Shown in pieces: positions 1-18,073 of a DNA stretch of 64,000 bases (position 1 is the stretch's first letter; every line of letters begins with the position of its first letter). The DNA is taken from positions 294 to 64,293 of the forward strand of contig CAYVZI010000007.1 in NCBI GenBank assembly GCA_964456475.1. Reading direction: 5' to 3'. The translations under genes and the position numbers were made by a program. The notes below the pieces were generated by a model. The model was not told the origin of the DNA, did not search any database, and was given only the letters and a program-made list of their open reading frames with translations. The DNA comes from an uncultured Candidatus Saccharibacteria bacterium (GTDB lineage: Bacteria; Patescibacteriota; Minisyncoccia; Phycocordibacterales; UBA9973).

Positions 1-119
1 CCTATCCAAGAATCTATTTCATACTTACTCAGTACATCTGGGCTTGTTGTCTATGCGATGAAAGAGAGACTTCTTTCATTCTTTCATTTACCAAAAGGTA
101 GTGAGTTGCCACAGTAATT

Positions 120-434
120 ATGAATACGACTATTGACCAAGAAAATATACTTAGAGATCTCTTTTCTCAGCTTGTTGTAGATCAGGGTTTTTCGATTTCT
201 GAAGAAAATGAGCTGTTTGAAAAAATCGAGTCGACAATCATACTTACCGTAGCTGCAGAGCTTTTTACTACGCTTGATGAGGAAACAAGAGGGAATATTG
301 ATGAGAATGCTTTTTCAGACTACAAAGCAATGTTTGAATTTTTGAATGCACACACTCCAAAAGAATATTTCAGTGAAGTTGTGGCTTCAGTCACCGAATC
401 AGTCCTTGCCGAATTTTTGCATAATTTAAAATAG
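120..434 (+). CDS. hypothetical small acidic protein
   Basis: Complete 104-aa ORF with ATG start; no recognisable motif. Confidence 0.4.
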   Translation: MNTTIDQENILRDLFSQLVVDQGFSISEENELFEKIESTIILTVAAELFTTLDEETRGNIDENAFSDYKAMFEFLNAHTPKEYFSEVVASVTESVLAEFLHNLK

Positions 435-485
435 TCAGATTGACTTTTTGCTAATACGCTCGTATAATCCTTAAAAAATTCAGCC

Positions 486-929
486 ATGGTGTTAAAAAAT
501 TTCATAGAGTGTATTAAGAATTCAATCGGAACACGGATGTTTCGCAGTTATTTTGTTGATGATGTTGACGTGTTAAAAAATGGTGATTTGTCCTGCGCTT
601 TTTATGTAAGTTCACTGCTGCATATTTTTGGACTTATTGACCGAGCTCATTTCACGGTTGATGGTACGGAATTCGCCATGAAAAATGCAGGTTGGGTTGA
701 AATTAAAAAATTGAAGCCAGGATGCGTTATTTTTTGGGAGCCAATCATTCAAGATGGAAATCATCACAGGCATATCGGTTTTTATATTGGTGAAAACCAG
801 GCCATTAGCAACCGAAGCTCACTTCAAGCCGTAGGAGAGCACGCCCTTCATTATTCTGGTCTTGATAAGGATAATAAGAGGAAGAAGGCAAAAATCAATC
901 GCCTTTACTGGCACAAAAGCTTGGTGTAA
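486..929 (+). CDS. putative papain-fold cysteine peptidase (NlpC/P60 or CHAP-like), tentative
   Basis: 147-aa ORF with conserved Cys (LSCAFYVSSLL) and a downstream His cluster (NHHRHIGFYIG), the Cys-His spacing typical of NlpC/P60-CHAP folds. Weak call. Confidence 0.35.
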   Translation: MVLKNFIECIKNSIGTRMFRSYFVDDVDVLKNGDLSCAFYVSSLLHIFGLIDRAHFTVDGTEFAMKNAGWVEIKKLKPGCVIFWEPIIQDGNHHRHIGFYIGENQAISNRSSLQAVGEHALHYSGLDKDNKRKKAKINRLYWHKSLV

Positions 930-939
930 TATCACCTAC

Positions 940-1440
940 ATGAATGTAGTCGTAAAAGGATCAGAAGTGTCATTCAACAATGACACTTTTTTTAATTGCG
1001 TTTTTGGAAAAAATGGCTTTACTTCCGGTAAGGTAGAAGGTGATGAAAAAACACCTCTTGGCTTATTTGCCATAGAAAAGATTTATTTCAGAAGCGATCG
1101 TGTTCAGTCATTTGTTTCAATCTATAATTTGATTCCTATCAATAAAGATGATGGCTGGTGTGATGATGTGAATTCAGAATATTATAACCAGTTCATTAAA
1201 CTTCCGTTTGGGGAAAGTCATGAAGAATTATGGAGAGAAGATGAACTCTATGACATAATTGTGGTACTAGATTACAACACTAACCCTGTTACAAAAGGGA
1301 AAGGAAGTGCGATTTTTATGCATGTGGCAAAGGAAAACATGCAATATACGAAGGGCTGTATTGCTATGAAAAAACAGGATTTGATAGCCTTGCTGGGTAT
1401 GCTTGATTCTACTGATATAAAGGTGGAAATAAGGGCTTAG
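940..1440 (+). CDS. L,D-transpeptidase-like (YkuD/ErfK fold) protein
   Basis: C-terminal FMHVAKENMQYTKGCIAMK resembles the H...(S/T)xGC(I/V) catalytic motif of L,D-transpeptidases. The track ORF starts at 862 on TTG and overlaps the upstream ORF; the internal Met MNVVV just after the upstream stop is the more likely start. Confidence 0.5.
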   Translation: MNVVVKGSEVSFNNDTFFNCVFGKNGFTSGKVEGDEKTPLGLFAIEKIYFRSDRVQSFVSIYNLIPINKDDGWCDDVNSEYYNQFIKLPFGESHEELWREDELYDIIVVLDYNTNPVTKGKGSAIFMHVAKENMQYTKGCIAMKKQDLIALLGMLDSTDIKVEIRA

Positions 1441-1520
1441 AAGGTATATAAGGGCTTTCTAGAGGGGGAGGAAAGGTATAGCTTGATTTATTCCAGCAAA
1501 TATAGTACTATCTGCCTACT

Positions 1521-1679
1521 ATGTCACAAGATAAATTGATCAAACTCGCTTGCGGAACCTGTAAGCGCATCAACTACTGGAGCCGAAAGAATAAGAAACT
1601 CGTCACACGAAAGATCGAGCTCAACAAATACTGCAAATGGTGTAAGGTTCAGAAGAAACATAAGGAAGTTAAAAAGTAA
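1521..1679 (+). CDS. rpmG: 50S ribosomal protein L33
   Basis: 52-aa ORF below the track length cut-off. Hand translation MSQDKLIKLACGTCKRINYWSRKNKKLVTRKIELNKYCKWCKVQKKHKEVKK shows the CxxC...YCxxC zinc ribbon and the NY/ELxKYC/HKE signature of L33. Confidence 0.85.
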   Translation: MSQDKLIKLACGTCKRINYWSRKNKKLVTRKIELNKYCKWCKVQKKHKEVKK

Positions 1680-1684
1680 AAACA

Positions 1685-1710
1685 AAAGCCCCGAAAGGGG
1701 CTTTTGTTTT
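1685..1710 (+). terminator. rho-independent terminator after rpmG
   Basis: Hairpin AAAGCCCC-gaaa-GGGGCTTT followed by a T-run. Confidence 0.7.
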
Positions 1711-1759
1711 GGATTGGGTGGTATATAATGTTTATGTAACCCTACAATAGGGTTCTTTT

Positions 1760-2413
1760 ATGAAAAAAGATTTACAGCTTAAAACTATAGAGCTTCGAAA
1801 ACTCGGGCATTCTGTAAAAGAACTTCATGAGGAAATTGGAGTTTCAAAAAGCACCATTTCGAAGTGGATACAAACCGTTCCACTTTCGCAGAAGGCACAA
1901 AAGCGATTACGAGATCGGTCGACTAAGGCTCGAATAAAAGCCGAGGAGACAATTAGAGAAAAAACGAGGCAAAAAAATATTGTTGCGAGAGACTTCGCAA
2001 ATGACACTCTAGATTCAAGTAAAATTGATCAAAATATCCAAGCCGTGCTTTGTTCCATGATTTATTACTGCGAGGGTAATAAAGAATTAAAAGGGGTCAC
2101 TTTTACCAATTCTGATCCAGGATTGATTCGTTCTTTTTTAGTATTGTTTAGAAATTCATTTAGTCTTGATGAAGGCAAATTTCGAGTATTAATGCATCTT
2201 CATGATTATCATAACGAAAAGGAGCAAAAATTATTCTGGTCGAATATTACTCAAATTCCTTATAATCAATTCAATAAGTCGTACATTAAAAAAAGCGAAC
2301 ATAAGTATAAAAAAGAGGGGTATATGGGATGTATAAAGGTGGTATATGGTGATGTTTCGATTGCAAGAAAATTGAGTGCCATTGCAAAAACCTTTATGGA
2401 AAGGTATAAATAG
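1760..2413 (+). CDS. freestanding HTH + single-motif LAGLIDADG-like homing-endonuclease-family protein
   Basis: N-terminal HTH (LRKLGHSVKELHEEIGVSKSTISKWIQ) and a LAGLIDADG-like motif CSMIYYCEGNK (hydrophobic-x-G...EG). Clear paralog of ORF 17284..17967. Stop lies 7 nt before tRNA-Trp. Confidence 0.6.
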   Translation: MKKDLQLKTIELRKLGHSVKELHEEIGVSKSTISKWIQTVPLSQKAQKRLRDRSTKARIKAEETIREKTRQKNIVARDFANDTLDSSKIDQNIQAVLCSMIYYCEGNKELKGVTFTNSDPGLIRSFLVLFRNSFSLDEGKFRVLMHLHDYHNEKEQKLFWSNITQIPYNQFNKSYIKKSEHKYKKEGYMGCIKVVYGDVSIARKLSAIAKTFMERYK

Positions 2414-2419
2414 ACGCAC

Positions 2420-2490
2420 GGGCGGTTAGTTTAGTGGTAGAACAAAGGACTCCAAATCCTTTGGCGGGAGTTCGATTCTTCCACCGCCCG
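2420..2490 (+). tRNA. tRNA-Trp (anticodon CCA)
   Basis: Hand-folded cloverleaf. Acceptor GGGCGGT/ACCGCCC, anticodon stem AAGGA/TCCTT with loop CTCCAAA, T-arm GGGAG-TTCGATT-CTTCC, discriminator G. CCA not encoded. Confidence 0.85.
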
Positions 2491-2498
2491 CAAAATGT

Positions 2499-3029
2499 AT
2501 GACTCAAGAAAACATTCAATCTCCTGAAAAAGTAACTTTTAAAAAACCAGGACCGGAAGACTGGGAAAGATTTCGAAAAATTAGACTAGAAGCTTTGCAA
2601 ACAGACCCGCAAGCTTTTGGGGGTAATTTTGAGAATGAATTGCAGGAAAATGAACTATATTGGCGAGAAAAATTATCAGATAAAGATAGAAGTTTCTATG
2701 TAGCTGAAGAGAATTCGGATTTTGTTGCAACAGCCGGTGCAAGAAAGATAGATGATACAGAGTGGATGCTTTCAACTATTTATACCTCGCCTAGTTCTAG
2801 AGGAAAAGGGATTTCAAATGAGCTGTTATTGCGAGTTATACATGAAGCAAAAAAATCTGGTGTAAAGAAGGTATCTCTCAATGTAAATTCTGAACAGGAA
2901 AATGCTGTTGATTTATATAAAAAATTAGGATTTAAAATAATTGCAGAAGGAAAAGGTATACAGATGGGGGATGGAATTATTCATCACGAGTATTACATGG
3001 AGAAGGAGCTCGATTCTCTTTTAGACTAA
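2499..3029 (+). CDS. GNAT family N-acetyltransferase
   Basis: 176 aa with typical GNAT motifs (RxxGxG/A-like SSRGKGISNELL, C-terminal KLGFKI). Confidence 0.8.
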   Translation: MTQENIQSPEKVTFKKPGPEDWERFRKIRLEALQTDPQAFGGNFENELQENELYWREKLSDKDRSFYVAEENSDFVATAGARKIDDTEWMLSTIYTSPSSRGKGISNELLLRVIHEAKKSGVKKVSLNVNSEQENAVDLYKKLGFKIIAEGKGIQMGDGIIHHEYYMEKELDSLLD

Positions 3030-3030
3030 C

Positions 3031-3969
3031 TTATCTCAAAAAATCCTTAATCGCTTTCGTTTCTTTTACTACCTCGCTTTTCTTCAGTGGATTTATCCAA
3101 ACGATTGTTTCATCTCGCTTGAACCACGTTCTTTGGCGTTTTACATAGTGCCAGATATCCATTGCGAGTTCTTCTTCGAATTGCACGCGAGTTGTTTTCT
3201 TTGTAAGGAGCTTTGCCATTTCGCGATATTCAAGGCCGAGTGCTTCCATACGTTTCCATGACAGACCTTTTTTATGAAGATTGATGGCTTCACGAAGCAT
3301 GCCTGCGTTGAGTCGCTCTTTTAAGCGCTTCATGATGCGCGTTTTAAGTTCCATGTCTCCCATATCCAGTCCAATTTTGAGCGTGTTATATTTCGGTTTT
3401 ATGTTCTTGAGTTTTGGAACCTTGCCGAGTGCTTTTGCTATTTCGATAGCACGAATAAGGCGAACGGGGTTTTGCGCATCAATTGTTTTTGCACGAGCTG
3501 AGTCGAGTTTTTTGAGTATTTCAAAAAGCTGCTCTGCGGTTTTCTTTTCGAGTTTTTTGCGGAGTTCTACATTTGGTGGTACTTCGGGCAAAGTTGTGCC
3601 GTTTATCAGCATGTCGATATAGAGTCCTGTTCCTCCGCAGATGATAGGTAAATTCCCGCGTGAAAGAATATCGGCAATAGCTTTTTCCGCGAGTGTTACA
3701 AAATCAGTGACGGCGAATTGTTTCTTTGCGTCGGCAACGTCGAGTAGGTGATGGGGAACACTAGACATTTCTTTTTTGGTGACCTTGCCGGTACCGAGAT
3801 CAAGTCCTGTATATACTTGGCGTGAATCAGCAGAAATAATCTCACCACTATATTTTTTGGCGAGCTCTATAGAGAGCGAAGTTTTTCCTGTGGCTGTTGG
3901 GCCGAGGAGAACTAAGATTTTAGGATTAGAAATTAAATTCTTGTTCTTTTGTTTCGGGTTTGCGGTCAT
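3031..3969 (-). CDS. miaA: tRNA dimethylallyltransferase
   Basis: P-loop LLGPTATGKTSLSIELAK, SADSRQVYTGLDLGTGK, HHLLDV and GGTGLY motifs characteristic of MiaA. Confidence 0.9.
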   Translation of the reverse strand: MTANPKQKNKNLISNPKILVLLGPTATGKTSLSIELAKKYSGEIISADSRQVYTGLDLGTGKVTKKEMSSVPHHLLDVADAKKQFAVTDFVTLAEKAIADILSRGNLPIICGGTGLYIDMLINGTTLPEVPPNVELRKKLEKKTAEQLFEILKKLDSARAKTIDAQNPVRLIRAIEIAKALGKVPKLKNIKPKYNTLKIGLDMGDMELKTRIMKRLKERLNAGMLREAINLHKKGLSWKRMEALGLEYREMAKLLTKKTTRVQFEEELAMDIWHYVKRQRTWFKRDETIVWINPLKKSEVVKETKAIKDFLR

Positions 3970-4423: not shown

Positions 4424-4544
4424 GATTTCCGCGACCCCGCCTCACGGTTTCGCGTGCTCGCGAAACATCGTTCCGGCTTTCAACTCCCTCACACGAACCA
4501 AGTAGTTGGTTCGCTCTTCGGTACAATTTCATTATATTCAATTG

Positions 4545-4625
4545 TGCCGAAGGAGGGAGTTGAACCCTCATGAGTTGCCCCACTCGATTTTGAGTCGAGC
4601 GCGTCTACCATTCCGCCACTTCGGC
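4545..4625 (-). tRNA. tRNA-Leu (anticodon CAA)
   Basis: Reverse complement folds as GCCGAAG...CTTCGGC acceptor, anticodon loop CTCAAAA, and a long variable arm (TGGGGCAACTCATGAG) typical of tRNA-Leu. Discriminator A, no encoded CCA. Confidence 0.85.
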
Positions 4626-17283: not shown

Positions 17284-17967
17284 ATGATTATAAAAAGTAT
17301 TGAAAAAGAAAAAGCGATTTCTCTTCGCCGAGAAGGCAAAACATATTCAGAAATAATGAAAGTTGTTCCTGTGGCCAAATCAACAATCTCACTTTGGTTA
17401 CGTGAGGTTGGACTTTCTGTTCCTCAACAACATGTTTTGACTGCAAAGAAAATCGCGGCCTCAAAACGAGGCGGTTTGGCAAAAAGAAAGCAACGAATTG
17501 ATAGAACTAGCACTATTTTTGAAGAAGCAAAGGCTGAAATTGGGACTCTTTCTAAGAGGGAATTATTTCTGATAGGAGTTGCTTTGTATTGGGCAGAAGG
17601 ATCAAAGCAAAAAGAACACAATGTGAGTGAGCCGCTTGTATTTGGAAATTCAGACCCAAATATGATAGAGTGCTTCTTGAGATGGTTGAATTTGGTTGGT
17701 GTACAAGACTTAGACGTTTGTTATGAATTATATATTCATAAATCAGGTAACGTTGAAAGAGCCAAGCAATTTTGGGTGAAAATAATAAAACAACCTATTT
17801 CGATTTTTGATAAACGTGTGTATTTTAAAAAAGGCAATCCAAAGACCAAGAGAAAAAATAGTGGAGAAAAATATATTGGCTTGTTGAGAATTAAGGTAAA
17901 ACGAAGTACTGATTTGAATCGAAAAATATTAGGCTGGACACACGGCATAATAAAAAATTGTATTTAA
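17284..17967 (+). CDS. freestanding HTH + single-motif LAGLIDADG-like homing-endonuclease-family protein (paralog of 1760..2413)
   Basis: HTH YSEIMKVVPVAKSTISLWLR; LAGLIDADG-like LIGVALYWAEGSK; GNSDPNMIECFLRWL aligns with GxSDPGLIRSFLVLF of the paralog. Stop lies 3 nt before tRNA-Gln. Confidence 0.6.
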   Translation: MIIKSIEKEKAISLRREGKTYSEIMKVVPVAKSTISLWLREVGLSVPQQHVLTAKKIAASKRGGLAKRKQRIDRTSTIFEEAKAEIGTLSKRELFLIGVALYWAEGSKQKEHNVSEPLVFGNSDPNMIECFLRWLNLVGVQDLDVCYELYIHKSGNVERAKQFWVKIIKQPISIFDKRVYFKKGNPKTKRKNSGEKYIGLLRIKVKRSTDLNRKILGWTHGIIKNCI

Positions 17968-17970
17968 AGC

Positions 17971-18041
17971 TGGGGAATCGTCTAACGGCAGGACTCCTCC
18001 CTTTGAAGGAGGCTATCTTGGTTCGAGTCCAAGTTCCCCAG
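17971..18041 (+). tRNA. tRNA-Gln (anticodon TTG) with U1:A72
   Basis: Acceptor TGGGGAA/TTCCCCA, anticodon stem CCTCC/GGAGG with loop CTTTGAA, T-arm CTTGG-TTCGAGT-CCAAG, discriminator G. The U1:A72 pair is characteristic of bacterial tRNA-Gln. Confidence 0.8.
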
Positions 18042-18073
18042 CTTTGAATAGAATTTGTACCTCAAATTTTTTA

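Follow-up and report, generated by a model that had tools for sequence, protein, structure and literature searches.

Two genes in the window (the whole stretch of 64,000 nucleotides that was analysed, from a bacterium of the candidate phyla radiation), here called ORF A and ORF B, are paralogous members of a large bacterial superfamily whose branches each accompany one particular tRNA gene. With a probability of roughly one half, we consider them long-resident genes for homing-type endonucleases that became anchored at tRNA genes, and their products putative nucleases. They would then stand free in the chromosome and encode small, site-specific nucleases that bind DNA and descend from homing endonucleases: the proteins may dimerise via a LAGLIDADG-like helix, use E105, K108 and the aspartate of an N-S-D-P motif as a metal-dependent active site, obtain part of their sequence recognition from a helix-turn-helix (HTH) domain, and act on the DNA at or beside the cognate tRNA gene. 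Each branch would be confined to the 5' side of a single tRNA gene (Trp-CCA, Gln-UUG, Tyr, Thr-GGU or Gly-GCC), with the tRNA gene serving as an ultra-conserved landing mark and as flanking homology for repair-mediated copying, and staying intact because the resident gene lies upstream on the same strand. In the clade of the window, a promoter-like element for the tRNA would be borne in the last codons of the gene itself. Nuclease activity, target, dimerisation and homing itself are what we infer from the evidence below.

The pair and its tRNA partners, the latter predicted by ARAGORN, are located as follows:

1760..2413, + strand: ORF A, 217 aa, the Trp-type member of the HTH plus LAGLIDADG-like superfamily
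2420..2491, + strand: tRNA-Trp(CCA), the conserved partner of A-type genes
17284..17967, + strand: ORF B, 227 aa, the Gln-type member, with LYWAEGSK at 17584-17607
17971..18042, + strand: tRNA-Gln(UUG), the conserved partner of B-type genes

A preliminary description of this DNA had proposed that the two genes are paralogous, that each ends a few nucleotides before a tRNA gene on the same strand and that neither lies within an intron or intein. All three proposals hold: BLASTP aligns the proteins over nearly their full length (27% identity, E 3e-15), the gap between stop codon and tRNA is 6 nt for ORF A and tRNA-Trp and 3 nt for ORF B and tRNA-Gln, and both genes lie outside introns and inteins. 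A profile search of the six-frame translated window recovered these two family copies only, and no convincing transposon-type flanking direct or inverted repeats were found around either of them.

The superfamily, for which there is no annotation, comprises about 8,180 clusters at 50% identity, sharing a layout in which an N-terminal HTH is followed by a long helix and then by a C-domain of ~130 aa. Whether other copies also precede tRNA genes had been named as a check on the initial idea, and they do: tRNA-Trp lies downstream of the A-type gene in 71 of 77 orthologous loci (genomes) and tRNA-Gln downstream of the B-type gene in 79 of 80 metagenome loci. Kept in so many orthologous loci, the adjacency is far above chance. 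There are smaller branches of the Tyr, Thr(GGU) and Gly(GCC) types; in the tree the Trp, Gln, Tyr and Thr types, all multi-copy, form one clade each and the lone Gly-type copy is the sister of the Gln clade. In most loci the ORF stops 0-9 nt 5' of the tRNA or 10-21 nt within it, so that ORF and tRNA can share a transcript, and the order dnaX-B-tRNA-Gln is found in 48 of the 80 B loci. Frameshifted or truncated copies occur, and so do, in Actinomadura and Allonocardiopsis, tandem-fused versions with two domains, which parallel the known step from homodimer to fused monomer among LAGLIDADG enzymes and by that analogy support a dimeric working unit. The fused Actinomadura protein WP_019629257.1 ends in '...AGIV', a C-terminus suggesting that its gene may likewise adjoin tRNA-Gln. 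With tblastn, no family match was obtained in phage and plasmid collections. A literature search retrieved no description of the family, and the arrangement of one branch to a single tRNA is previously undescribed.

The architecture of the protein was derived from AlphaFold (AF2) models (pLDDT 94.9 for ORF A and 92.6 for the C-domain of ORF B), Pfam matches and conserved alignment columns. In ORF A it contains:

1763..1870, + strand: N-terminal three-helix HTH of the resolvase/transposase type, residues 2-37 (Pfam HTH_23/HTH_7)
1889..2017, + strand: long connecting helix, residues 44-86 (43 residues; AF2 secondary structure)
2030..2083, + strand: LAGLIDADG-like helix ending in the invariant C-E105-G-N-K108 (invariant columns; hhalign)
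2108..2119, + strand: invariant N-S-D-P, residues 117-120, at a strand-helix junction, aligned with the end of the corresponding I-DmoI strand

The N-terminal HTH noticed at the outset, with modelled helices at residues 2-14, 19-26 and 30-37, is matched by HTH_23 in 46 and by HTH_7 in 34 of the 47 family members. Searches of the PDB with single sequences and profiles returned HTH proteins only (by profile: the Sleeping Beauty PAI subdomain, SinR and a resolvase HTH), and searches of A, B and their paralogues against Pfam, NCBIfam, PHROGs and PADLOC returned HTH matches only and no nuclease model. A weak match to DUF3242 was seen in nine family members. The helix of residues 91-105 ends at the invariant E105-G106, followed by K108 (codons of E105 and K108 at 2072-2074 and 2081-2083), and E105, G106, K108, D119 and H148 are among the residues that are invariant across the A and B families. 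The motifs (Y)(Y/W)(C/A)EGxK and NSDP, first pointed out in the preliminary description, coincide with the invariant core of the family, and the supposed Lys-rich tail is actually a basic loop between two strands (residues ~177-186) with the final helix after it.

The site occupied by ORF A is polymorphic among relatives, as can be seen from the following elements:

1521..1679, + strand: rpmG (ribosomal protein L33), an ORF whose homologues carry PF00471 and the upstream border of the polymorphic site
1679..1710, + strand: perfect hairpin of 14 bp with a T run behind it, the likely rpmG terminator, homologous in the empty locus L181
1712..2381, + strand: segment that the relative L181, whose site is empty, lacks (blastn comparison of L181 with the window)

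Empty sites, which the preliminary description had proposed to look for, were indeed present in relatives, with tRNA-Trp located 0-250 nt after rpmG. In eight of the ten sampled rpmG clusters tRNA-Trp directly follows rpmG with no family match at E <= 1, one cluster has neither tRNA-Trp nor the ORF nearby, and the tenth (P0233, with identical L33) contains both an occupied locus (L224) and empty ones (L225-L230), with MiaA 83-87% and flanks 83-85% identical between the two states. Blastn matched L181 positions 2561-2749 to window positions 1521-1711 and L181 positions 2780-2890 to window positions 2382-2492; the missing segment consists of the upstream region and ORF A without its last 11 codons, and 30 unrelated nt take its place. 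The last 33 nt of ORF A are retained there as a scar that, as read from the alignment, shows loss of the gene and not gain. A gain of ORF A had also been considered for the trio L224/L225/L227 and was withdrawn, since L225 and L227 are sisters with a DNA identity of 90.7% and a gain is then as parsimonious as a loss. ORF A is missing from most of the related genomes sampled, so that it cannot be essential and is, judged from these genomes, dispensable. It is thus sporadically present at a fixed site for which there are empty alleles. The tRNA-Tyr site occurs in three states: with single-motif genes (5), with double-motif genes (3) or empty (27). The double-motif genes, in L038, L067 and L008, encode a canonical HTH_7 domain with a double LAGLIDADG_3 (Pfam E = 5e-14) and end 6-38 nt inside tRNA-Tyr. 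No position of tRNA-Trp was found to distinguish occupied sites from empty ones, and the empty sites share no conserved 5' flank, so that a target site or self-immunity is not readable from the sequences. Between the two origins suggested initially, homing or a domesticated tRNA-associated function, the presence/absence polymorphism at otherwise syntenic sites favours a homing or selfish origin, with some room left for a domesticated role.

The end of ORF A carries one further element:

2382..2410, + strand: two-block element TTGCAA (2382-2387), 17 nt, TATAAA (2405-2410), from synonymous-site analysis

The element lies inside the last 11 codons of the gene and ends 9 nt before tRNA +1. In 21 loci, synonymous differences amount to 0 in codons -10 to -7 and -4 to -1 versus 43% in codons -60 to -12, and the two-block geometry is preserved in the scar of L181. 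A consensus promoter scan of 1500..2600 made no call, as the -10 element lacks the final T; the element is therefore a tRNA-Trp promoter predicted from the synonymous-site analysis, from which tRNA-Trp would be transcribed separately, behind a leader of ~3 nt. In the B loci no promoter was found at a fixed position relative to tRNA-Gln.

The sampled genomes share at most 77% identity in ORF A, near-identical copies are absent, and no sign of recent horizontal transfer was found among these genomes. Between the same genome pairs, the identities of ORF A and MiaA are 77/73, 71/80 and 67/66%, and within close groups ORF A is congruent with MiaA. The 77% maximum, this congruence and the MiaA-like conservation fit long vertical descent under purifying selection, which, together with the lack of a visible target or immunity logic, makes a domesticated role possible. 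ORF A and ORF B might then encode domesticated LAGLIDADG-derived DNA-binding proteins, each dedicated to one tRNA locus, that serve the host and no longer move, for example as regulators of the adjacent tRNA (and of themselves) or as nucleases that guard the locus. We judge this to be the strongest of the alternatives and still clearly less probable than a resident homing-type gene. The invariant residues and the 8,180-cluster family argue for sustained selection, and the dnaX-B-tRNA-Gln synteny and the promoter-like element of the tRNA inside ORF A also speak for domestication. A precedent is WhiA, a domesticated LAGLIDADG plus HTH transcription factor of Gram-positive bacteria, in which two degenerate LAGLIDADG domains without catalytic acids are followed by a C-terminal HTH. 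Like WhiA, the A/B proteins pair an HTH with domain(s) of the LAGLIDADG type in a non-mobile context on the chromosome; they differ in having an N-terminal HTH, one domain and an invariant Glu, and in not being universal within the clade. Neither A nor B is matched by LAGLIDADG_WhiA or HTH_WhiA, the best Pfam WhiA match being HTH_WhiA at E = 0.07 in one paralogue only. Domestication is further at odds with the frequent absence of ORF A from relatives, with the near lack of correlation between ORF A and MiaA identity in the wider clade (Pearson 0.31, Spearman 0.04), with the canonical, apparently catalytic LAGLIDADG gene at the same position in other genomes, and with the invariance of the two residues that correspond in the alignment to the catalytic Glu and Lys in I-DmoI, whereas the catalytic acids are typically gone from LAGLIDADG proteins that have been domesticated, WhiA among them.

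More speculatively, the superfamily as a whole might be more than selfish and consist of factors that are each specific for one tRNA gene linked to them in cis, with a separate paralogue for Trp, Gln, Tyr, Thr and Gly, and that arose when homing endonucleases were taken over for the control or protection of individual tRNA genes; we hold this to be rather unlikely. Such factors could control tRNA transcription or keep watch for foreign or suppressor forms of the tRNA, and a gene with the tRNA promoter in its own last codons would be hard to delete.

The reading as resident homing-type genes also draws on the LAGLIDADG affinity of the C-domain. The initial LAGLIDADG-like call fails by Pfam, the check that the preliminary description itself had proposed, and is supported by remote evidence, namely hhalign, Foldseek, BFVD and the HTH plus LAGLIDADG_3 gene at the same position. 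No Pfam LAGLIDADG model matches A or B at E <= 10 or any of six further paralogues at E <= 1, and LAGLIDADG is absent from the 25 Pfam families with the most matches (E <= 1) among the 47 A1 members; the L038 ORF, as positive control for the scan, matches LAGLIDADG_3 at 5e-14. With hhalign, for which the I-DmoI sequence was verified beforehand, the family aligns with the I-DmoI C-domain over 72 columns (P = 4.9e-5, probability 68%), the family helix being placed on 'GLYVAEGDK' with E105 on E117 and K108 on K120, so that the conserved acidic residue that closes a LAGLIDADG-like helix is present (E105). Foldseek gave no structural match at E < 1e-3, and its lowest-rmsd matches are I-DmoI and I-WcaI (I-DmoI: 2.3-3.9 A, 17-28% identity); the top BFVD matches are enriched in intein/DOD/LAGLIDADG proteins. 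In the AF2 models the strand order departs from the canonical alpha-beta-beta-alpha-beta-beta-alpha, and the two final core strands are separated by an additional helix and strand. When the family was aligned by hhalign with the three canonical HTH-LAGLIDADG_3 proteins, only the HTH matched (E = 2.5e-4); with the halves of these proteins taken separately, the register was correct and the score not significant. Taken together, AlphaFold models, Foldseek and hhalign weakly but consistently suggest that the C-domain is a single, divergent domain of the LAGLIDADG kind whose best counterpart is the C-terminal half of I-DmoI.

The C-domain could instead be a novel alpha/beta domain of an HTH regulator, the adjacency being an old compact operon, as might be supposed from its negative result in every curated HMM library, from Foldseek E-values never below 4e-3 and from nominal best PDB matches with OmpA-like or IspF folds. 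We regard this as improbable: those matches have an rmsd of 5-8 A, the nominally best OmpA-like ones of 6-8 A, versus the far lower values for I-DmoI, the motif register fits the second I-DmoI motif (P = 5e-5), canonical LAGLIDADG genes have the same HTH and genomic position, and a single ancestral operon cannot explain five branches on five different tRNAs. Identity with the OmpA-like or IspF folds themselves was rejected, as Foldseek with the full-length model gave TM 0.2-0.4 at ~6 A and agreement in secondary-structure order only.

Compared with known systems, the family resembles I-DmoI (LAGLIDADG_3 type) in a helix that ends in (A/C/G)EGxK, aligned with 'VAEGDK', and in the hairpin and helix that follow in the same register; it differs by a single motif, by an insertion of ~40 residues (helix, strand, basic loop) between the last core strands and by the N-terminal HTH and long helix. 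As with LAGLIDADG homing endonucleases in general, A is free-standing and polymorphic in presence beside a highly conserved gene, and the tandem fusions recall the monomeric enzymes; unlike them, the family escapes all Pfam LAGLIDADG models and is chromosomal in bacteria, outside introns and inteins, at one tRNA 5' flank per branch. The canonical genes before tRNA-Tyr share Patescibacteria as hosts, the position and the kind of HTH, and differ in length (~268 aa), in two Pfam-detected motifs (GILLGDGH, GFFDTDGS) and in C-domains without significant alignment to the A/B family. By analogy, the known system that comes closest in function, in that tRNA genes serve as a conserved neighbourhood for homing, is SegB of phage T4, described as a free-standing homing endonuclease gene in a tRNA gene cluster that promotes inheritance of the tRNA region (PMC2330249). 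SegB likewise lies among or beside tRNA genes; it is a single phage gene with the GIY-YIG fold, in contrast to the cellular, multi-branch A/B family with one tRNA per branch, and no promoter sharing is described for it.

At the B locus of the window the tRNA itself is embedded in a longer structure:

17955..18056, + strand: 23-bp inverted repeat extending the tRNA-Gln acceptor stem, in which 15 of 16 extra pairs form

The repeat takes in the region of the ORF B stop codon on one side and the 3' trailer on the other. Comparable extensions occur at five other B loci (6/80 in total) and at none of 156 Trp and other tRNAs, and the extended leader-trailer pairing was rejected as a family feature. 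A role at the RNA level, in which the protein would bind or process the adjacent tRNA precursor in cis like a maturase or chaperone, draws on the position of the stop codons close to or inside the tRNA, on this 23-bp acceptor helix and on the fact that some organellar LAGLIDADG proteins are RNA maturases, and is very improbable in view of the ordinary, intron-less tRNAs of 72 nt, which function in many relatives without the protein, the DNA-type HTH, the separate tRNA-Trp transcript that the promoter-like element would give, and the rarity of the extended stem.

If A and B are indeed resident homing-type genes, the superfamily would represent thousands of clusters of compact sequence-specific nucleases that are named by no curated library, each branch having evolved recognition of one tRNA locus. 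The 5' flank of bacterial tRNA genes would be a new chromosomal home for homing endonucleases, next to the usual ones in introns, inteins and phage genomes, and the recurrent 'hypothetical HTH protein' in Patescibacteria annotations would be explained. The promoter-like element within the ORF and the deletion scar illustrate how such a gene can come to be bound up with the expression of an essential tRNA. The branches would form a natural series of related enzymes, each with its own highly conserved target, of use in work on specificity or in enzyme engineering, and the homologues in cultivated Actinomadura and Allonocardiopsis open the family to experiment. Should the proteins instead be cis-linked factors for individual tRNA genes, they would constitute a previously unknown layer of tRNA-gene biology in minimal-genome bacteria and some actinomycetes.

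The preliminary description of a paralogous pair of genes abutting tRNAs was accurate: the proteins encoded by ORF A (before tRNA-Trp) and ORF B (before tRNA-Gln) share 27% identity (E 3e-15) in an alignment that covers almost all of both, and their stop codons are separated from the tRNA by 6 and 3 nt, respectively. The genes concerned are:

1760..2413, + strand: ORF A, 217 aa
2420..2491, same strand as ORF A: tRNA-Trp(cca), ARAGORN
17284..17967, + strand: ORF B, 227 aa
17971..18042, same strand as ORF B: tRNA-Gln(ttg), ARAGORN

A profile search in six frames recovered no third copy from the window, and the remaining four tRNAs of the window have no family gene as neighbour. Directly 5' of the ORF A start codon lies a 7-bp inverted repeat (AACCCTA-CAA-TAGGGTT, 1738..1754) that is not kept in the related locus L001; an operator or a hairpin in the RNA are possible roles. 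At the other site, a 23-bp inverted repeat (17955..17977 / 18034..18056) lengthens the acceptor stem of tRNA-Gln, reaching into the end of ORF B around its stop on one side and into the 3' trailer on the other, with 15 of the 16 extra pairs formed; a similar extension was found at only five other B loci and at none of 156 other tRNAs, and it may act as a processing stem.

The outstanding feature of the family is its tRNA linkage. The gene for tRNA-Trp(cca) lies directly 3' and on the same strand in 71 of the 77 genomes that encode an A-type (Trp-type) gene, and tRNA-Gln(ttg) is found at the ORF end in 79 of the 80 metagenome loci with a B-type (Gln-type) gene. The spacing between stop codon and tRNA is quantised (+6, 0..9, or an overlap of -10, -15/-16 or -21 nt), and a few ORFs extend right through the tRNA; those entering it would end where the conserved 5' part of the tRNA offers a stop triplet in frame (T8-A9-G10 and positions 13-15). 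The flanks of the fetched A and B loci contained additional paralogues: a Tyr-type, found ahead of 5 of the 35 tRNA-Tyr(gta) genes, a Gly-type preceding tRNA-Gly(gcc) and, in locus L054, a Thr-type preceding tRNA-Thr(ggt); two other Thr-type copies have no tRNA downstream (Rfam-confirmed). No family gene was found before tRNA-Leu(caa) (0/19) or tRNA-Thr(tgt) (0/17). Neighbour-joining grouped each of the Trp, Gln, Tyr and Thr types into a single clade and placed the lone Gly-type copy as the sister of the Gln clade. On one contig (L099) two family genes stand in tandem (104..784 and 966..1673), in the order Gly-type, tRNA-Gly(gcc) and directly thereafter Gln-type, tRNA-Gln(ttg). The exceptions to the linkage include L077 (681..1366), whose A-type copy is frameshifted and lacks a tRNA-Trp in its vicinity, the two Thr-type copies with no tRNA downstream (L023, 1469..2167, and L043, 1812..2402), and L044 and L060, in which tRNA-Trp lies just upstream of the ORF on the opposite strand. 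Frameshifted or truncated copies were seen in L060, L070, L071, L072, L077 and L155.

The other neighbours are variable: rpmG (the L33 gene) occurs upstream of A in 34/77 loci, dnaX upstream of B in 48/80 and miaA near A in 26/77. In the window miaA, encoding a tRNA isopentenyltransferase (3031..3969, - strand), is syntenic with tRNA-Trp(CCA) (2420..2491) and tRNA-Leu(CAA) (4544..4625), an arrangement shared by those 26 A loci and by the majority of empty loci (tRNA genes without a family ORF directly 5'); both tRNAs read UNN codons and are thus MiaA substrates.

ORF A has at least 102 relatives among the matches listed (36-100% identical, about 217-222 aa), all from Patescibacteria assemblies and annotated only as 'hypothetical' or 'HTH domain-containing', and a word-indexed search gave 1,922 relatives for ORF B. 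When a profile built jointly from A and B was run with HMMER over all 1.84 billion cluster representatives, 8,180 clusters matched at E <= 1e-3, of which 1,346 reached E <= 1e-30. Among the best-scoring representatives were Actinomadura and Allonocardiopsis proteins (424-576 aa) in which two family modules are fused in tandem, so that the family extends beyond Patescibacteria and into cultivated organisms. Examples of the fusion are P0343, P0346, P0347 and P0350 (424-560 aa, cultivated high-GC actinomycetes); the C-terminus of P0343 (...AGIV) resembles the GIV that ends the B-type ORFs running 15 nt into tRNA-Gln, and hence a linkage to tRNA-Gln may also hold for this actinomycete protein. The phage and plasmid collections searched contained no copies, and we found no description of the family in the literature searched. 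The residues invariant in both the A and B branches (ORF A numbering) are R13 and G16 in the HTH, and E105, G106, K108, N117-S118-D119-P120, H148, W160, K177, Y188 and G190.

The two genes had been described as LAGLIDADG-like, and this failed the proposed HMM test: for A, B and all paralogues, Pfam matches were confined to HTH families with none to the LAGLIDADG models, the NCBIfam, PHROG and PADLOC nuclease models gave no match, and PDB sequence searches returned nothing but HTH proteins. AlphaFold models were confident (pLDDT 94.9 for full-length A, 92.6 for the B C-domain) and comprise an HTH (residues 2-37), a 43-residue helix and a C-domain, the latter with helix 91-105, a short hairpin to 113-117, a helix, strand 141-148, a helix, strands 175-177/191-196 and a final helix. 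No structural match by Foldseek had an E-value under 1e-3. Nominally the best PDB hits were OmpA-like and IspF folds, yet with an rmsd of 5-8 A. The matches of lowest rmsd were LAGLIDADG enzymes: I-DmoI (4d6o, 129 columns, 3.9 A, probability 0.96; 5a0w, 61 columns, 2.3 A, 28% identity) and I-WcaI (52 columns, 31% identity), and many intein-bearing, DOD and LAGLIDADG proteins were among the top 40 of a viral structure library. In profile comparison with I-DmoI (sequence identical to 1b24_A), the family segment LYWAEGSK...NSDP... falls on the second LAGLIDADG motif GLYVAEGDK (broadened profile against the C-domain: P = 4.9e-5, probability 68%), and therefore E105 pairs with I-DmoI E117, the residue changed in PDB entry 5a0w ('I-DmoI E117A'), and K108 with K120.

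A second, unrelated-looking family occupies the same genomic position. In three genomes the gene immediately 5' of tRNA-Tyr(gta), which runs 6-38 nt into the tRNA, encodes a canonical protein of about 268 aa with HTH_7 and two LAGLIDADG_3 motifs (GILLGDGH and GFFDTDGS, the aspartate intact in both; Pfam E = 5e-14):

L038, 1636..2445: canonical HTH_7 + double LAGLIDADG_3 gene
L067: canonical gene, ends 6 nt inside tRNA-Tyr 2589..2672
L008, - strand: canonical gene, tRNA-Tyr 226..309

The HTH of this protein can be aligned with the A/B HTH (hhalign E = 2.5e-4), whereas the C-domains of the two families show no significant alignment. The tRNA-Tyr site occurs in three states (single-motif gene, double-motif gene and empty), and given the canonical gene and the shared HTH, the tRNA 5' flank is a home of HTH-LAGLIDADG genes in this phylum.

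Occupancy was followed on the contigs of ten rpmG clusters related to the L33 gene of the window. In eight, tRNA-Trp directly follows rpmG (gap 0-250 nt) with no family match at these empty sites even at E <= 1, and the synteny is window-like (rpmG, tRNA-Trp, miaA, tRNA-Leu(caa), parB); one cluster had neither tRNA nor ORF nearby. In L159 (2659/2660) and L168 (2659..2677) tRNA-Trp begins 0 or 17 nt past the rpmG stop codon, at which distance it would have to be co-transcribed with rpmG and then excised from that transcript. In the tenth cluster, P0233, whose L33 protein is identical, the occupied locus L224 stands beside the empty loci L225-L230, with MiaA 83-87% identical and flanks of 83-85% DNA identity, and the precise limits of homology are here the stop codon of rpmG and tRNA +1. 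A sister relationship of L225 and L227 (90.7%) makes a gain of the gene as parsimonious as a loss in this case. Between L010 and L224 collinearity continues through the ORF at 78% DNA identity, a sign of vertical descent there. In the empty locus L181 the final 33 nt of ORF A persist immediately before the tRNA (…AKTSVERYN* against …AKTFMERYK*), as a deletion scar; the segment specific to the window in this comparison is 1712..2381.

Within close groups the identities of ORF A and MiaA go together (67-77% against 73-80% for the window, L001 and L002; 67% against 66% for L015 and L017), and in the wider clade they correlate weakly (Pearson 0.31, Spearman 0.04). The sampled genomes contained no near-identical ORF A copies in distant hosts. 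Empty-site 5' flanks are diverse, and the sequence of tRNA-Trp does not reveal whether a site is occupied or empty. A domesticated role specific to the tRNA locus is a serious rival explanation, in favour of which count how strong purifying selection is and the fact that recent transfer was not detected.

The end of ORF A itself contains a conserved element. In every one of the 21 most closely related loci (the window, L001-L019 and L074) the arrangement is TTGCAA-N17-TATAAA-(stop)-N6-tRNA:

2382..2410 in the window: TTGCAA-N17-TATAAA, within the last 11 ORF A codons, also in L001-L019, L074 and L181

In these 21 loci, 43% of same-amino-acid sequence pairs differ in codon at codons -60..-12, against 0 of about 1,350 at codons -10..-7 and -4..-1, and the three codons between these blocks stay variable. 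Since the blocks are 17 nt apart, end 9 nt before tRNA +1 and survive in the L181 scar, they look like the -35 and -10 of a putative tRNA-Trp promoter embedded in the coding sequence, with a predicted leader of about 3 nt. A consensus promoter scanner missed the site, since its -10 element has a final A in place of T, and across the diverse B loci no tRNA-anchored element of this kind was seen.

As a whole, the observations are consistent with homing-type endonuclease genes forming a lineage that became specialised, long ago, for the 5' flanks of particular tRNA genes, since: the nuclease-like domain carries invariant putative catalytic residues; an HTH has been added; each branch has one tRNA; occupancy is patchy, and the empty sites are clean and lie between conserved genes; a canonical LAGLIDADG gene stands at the same position; and fused two-domain variants exist. 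The nearest functional precedent is SegB of T4 (PMC2330249). The family genes persist by vertical descent for long periods and undergo loss through deletion, and the gene of at least one clade appears to have become entangled with the expression of its tRNA.
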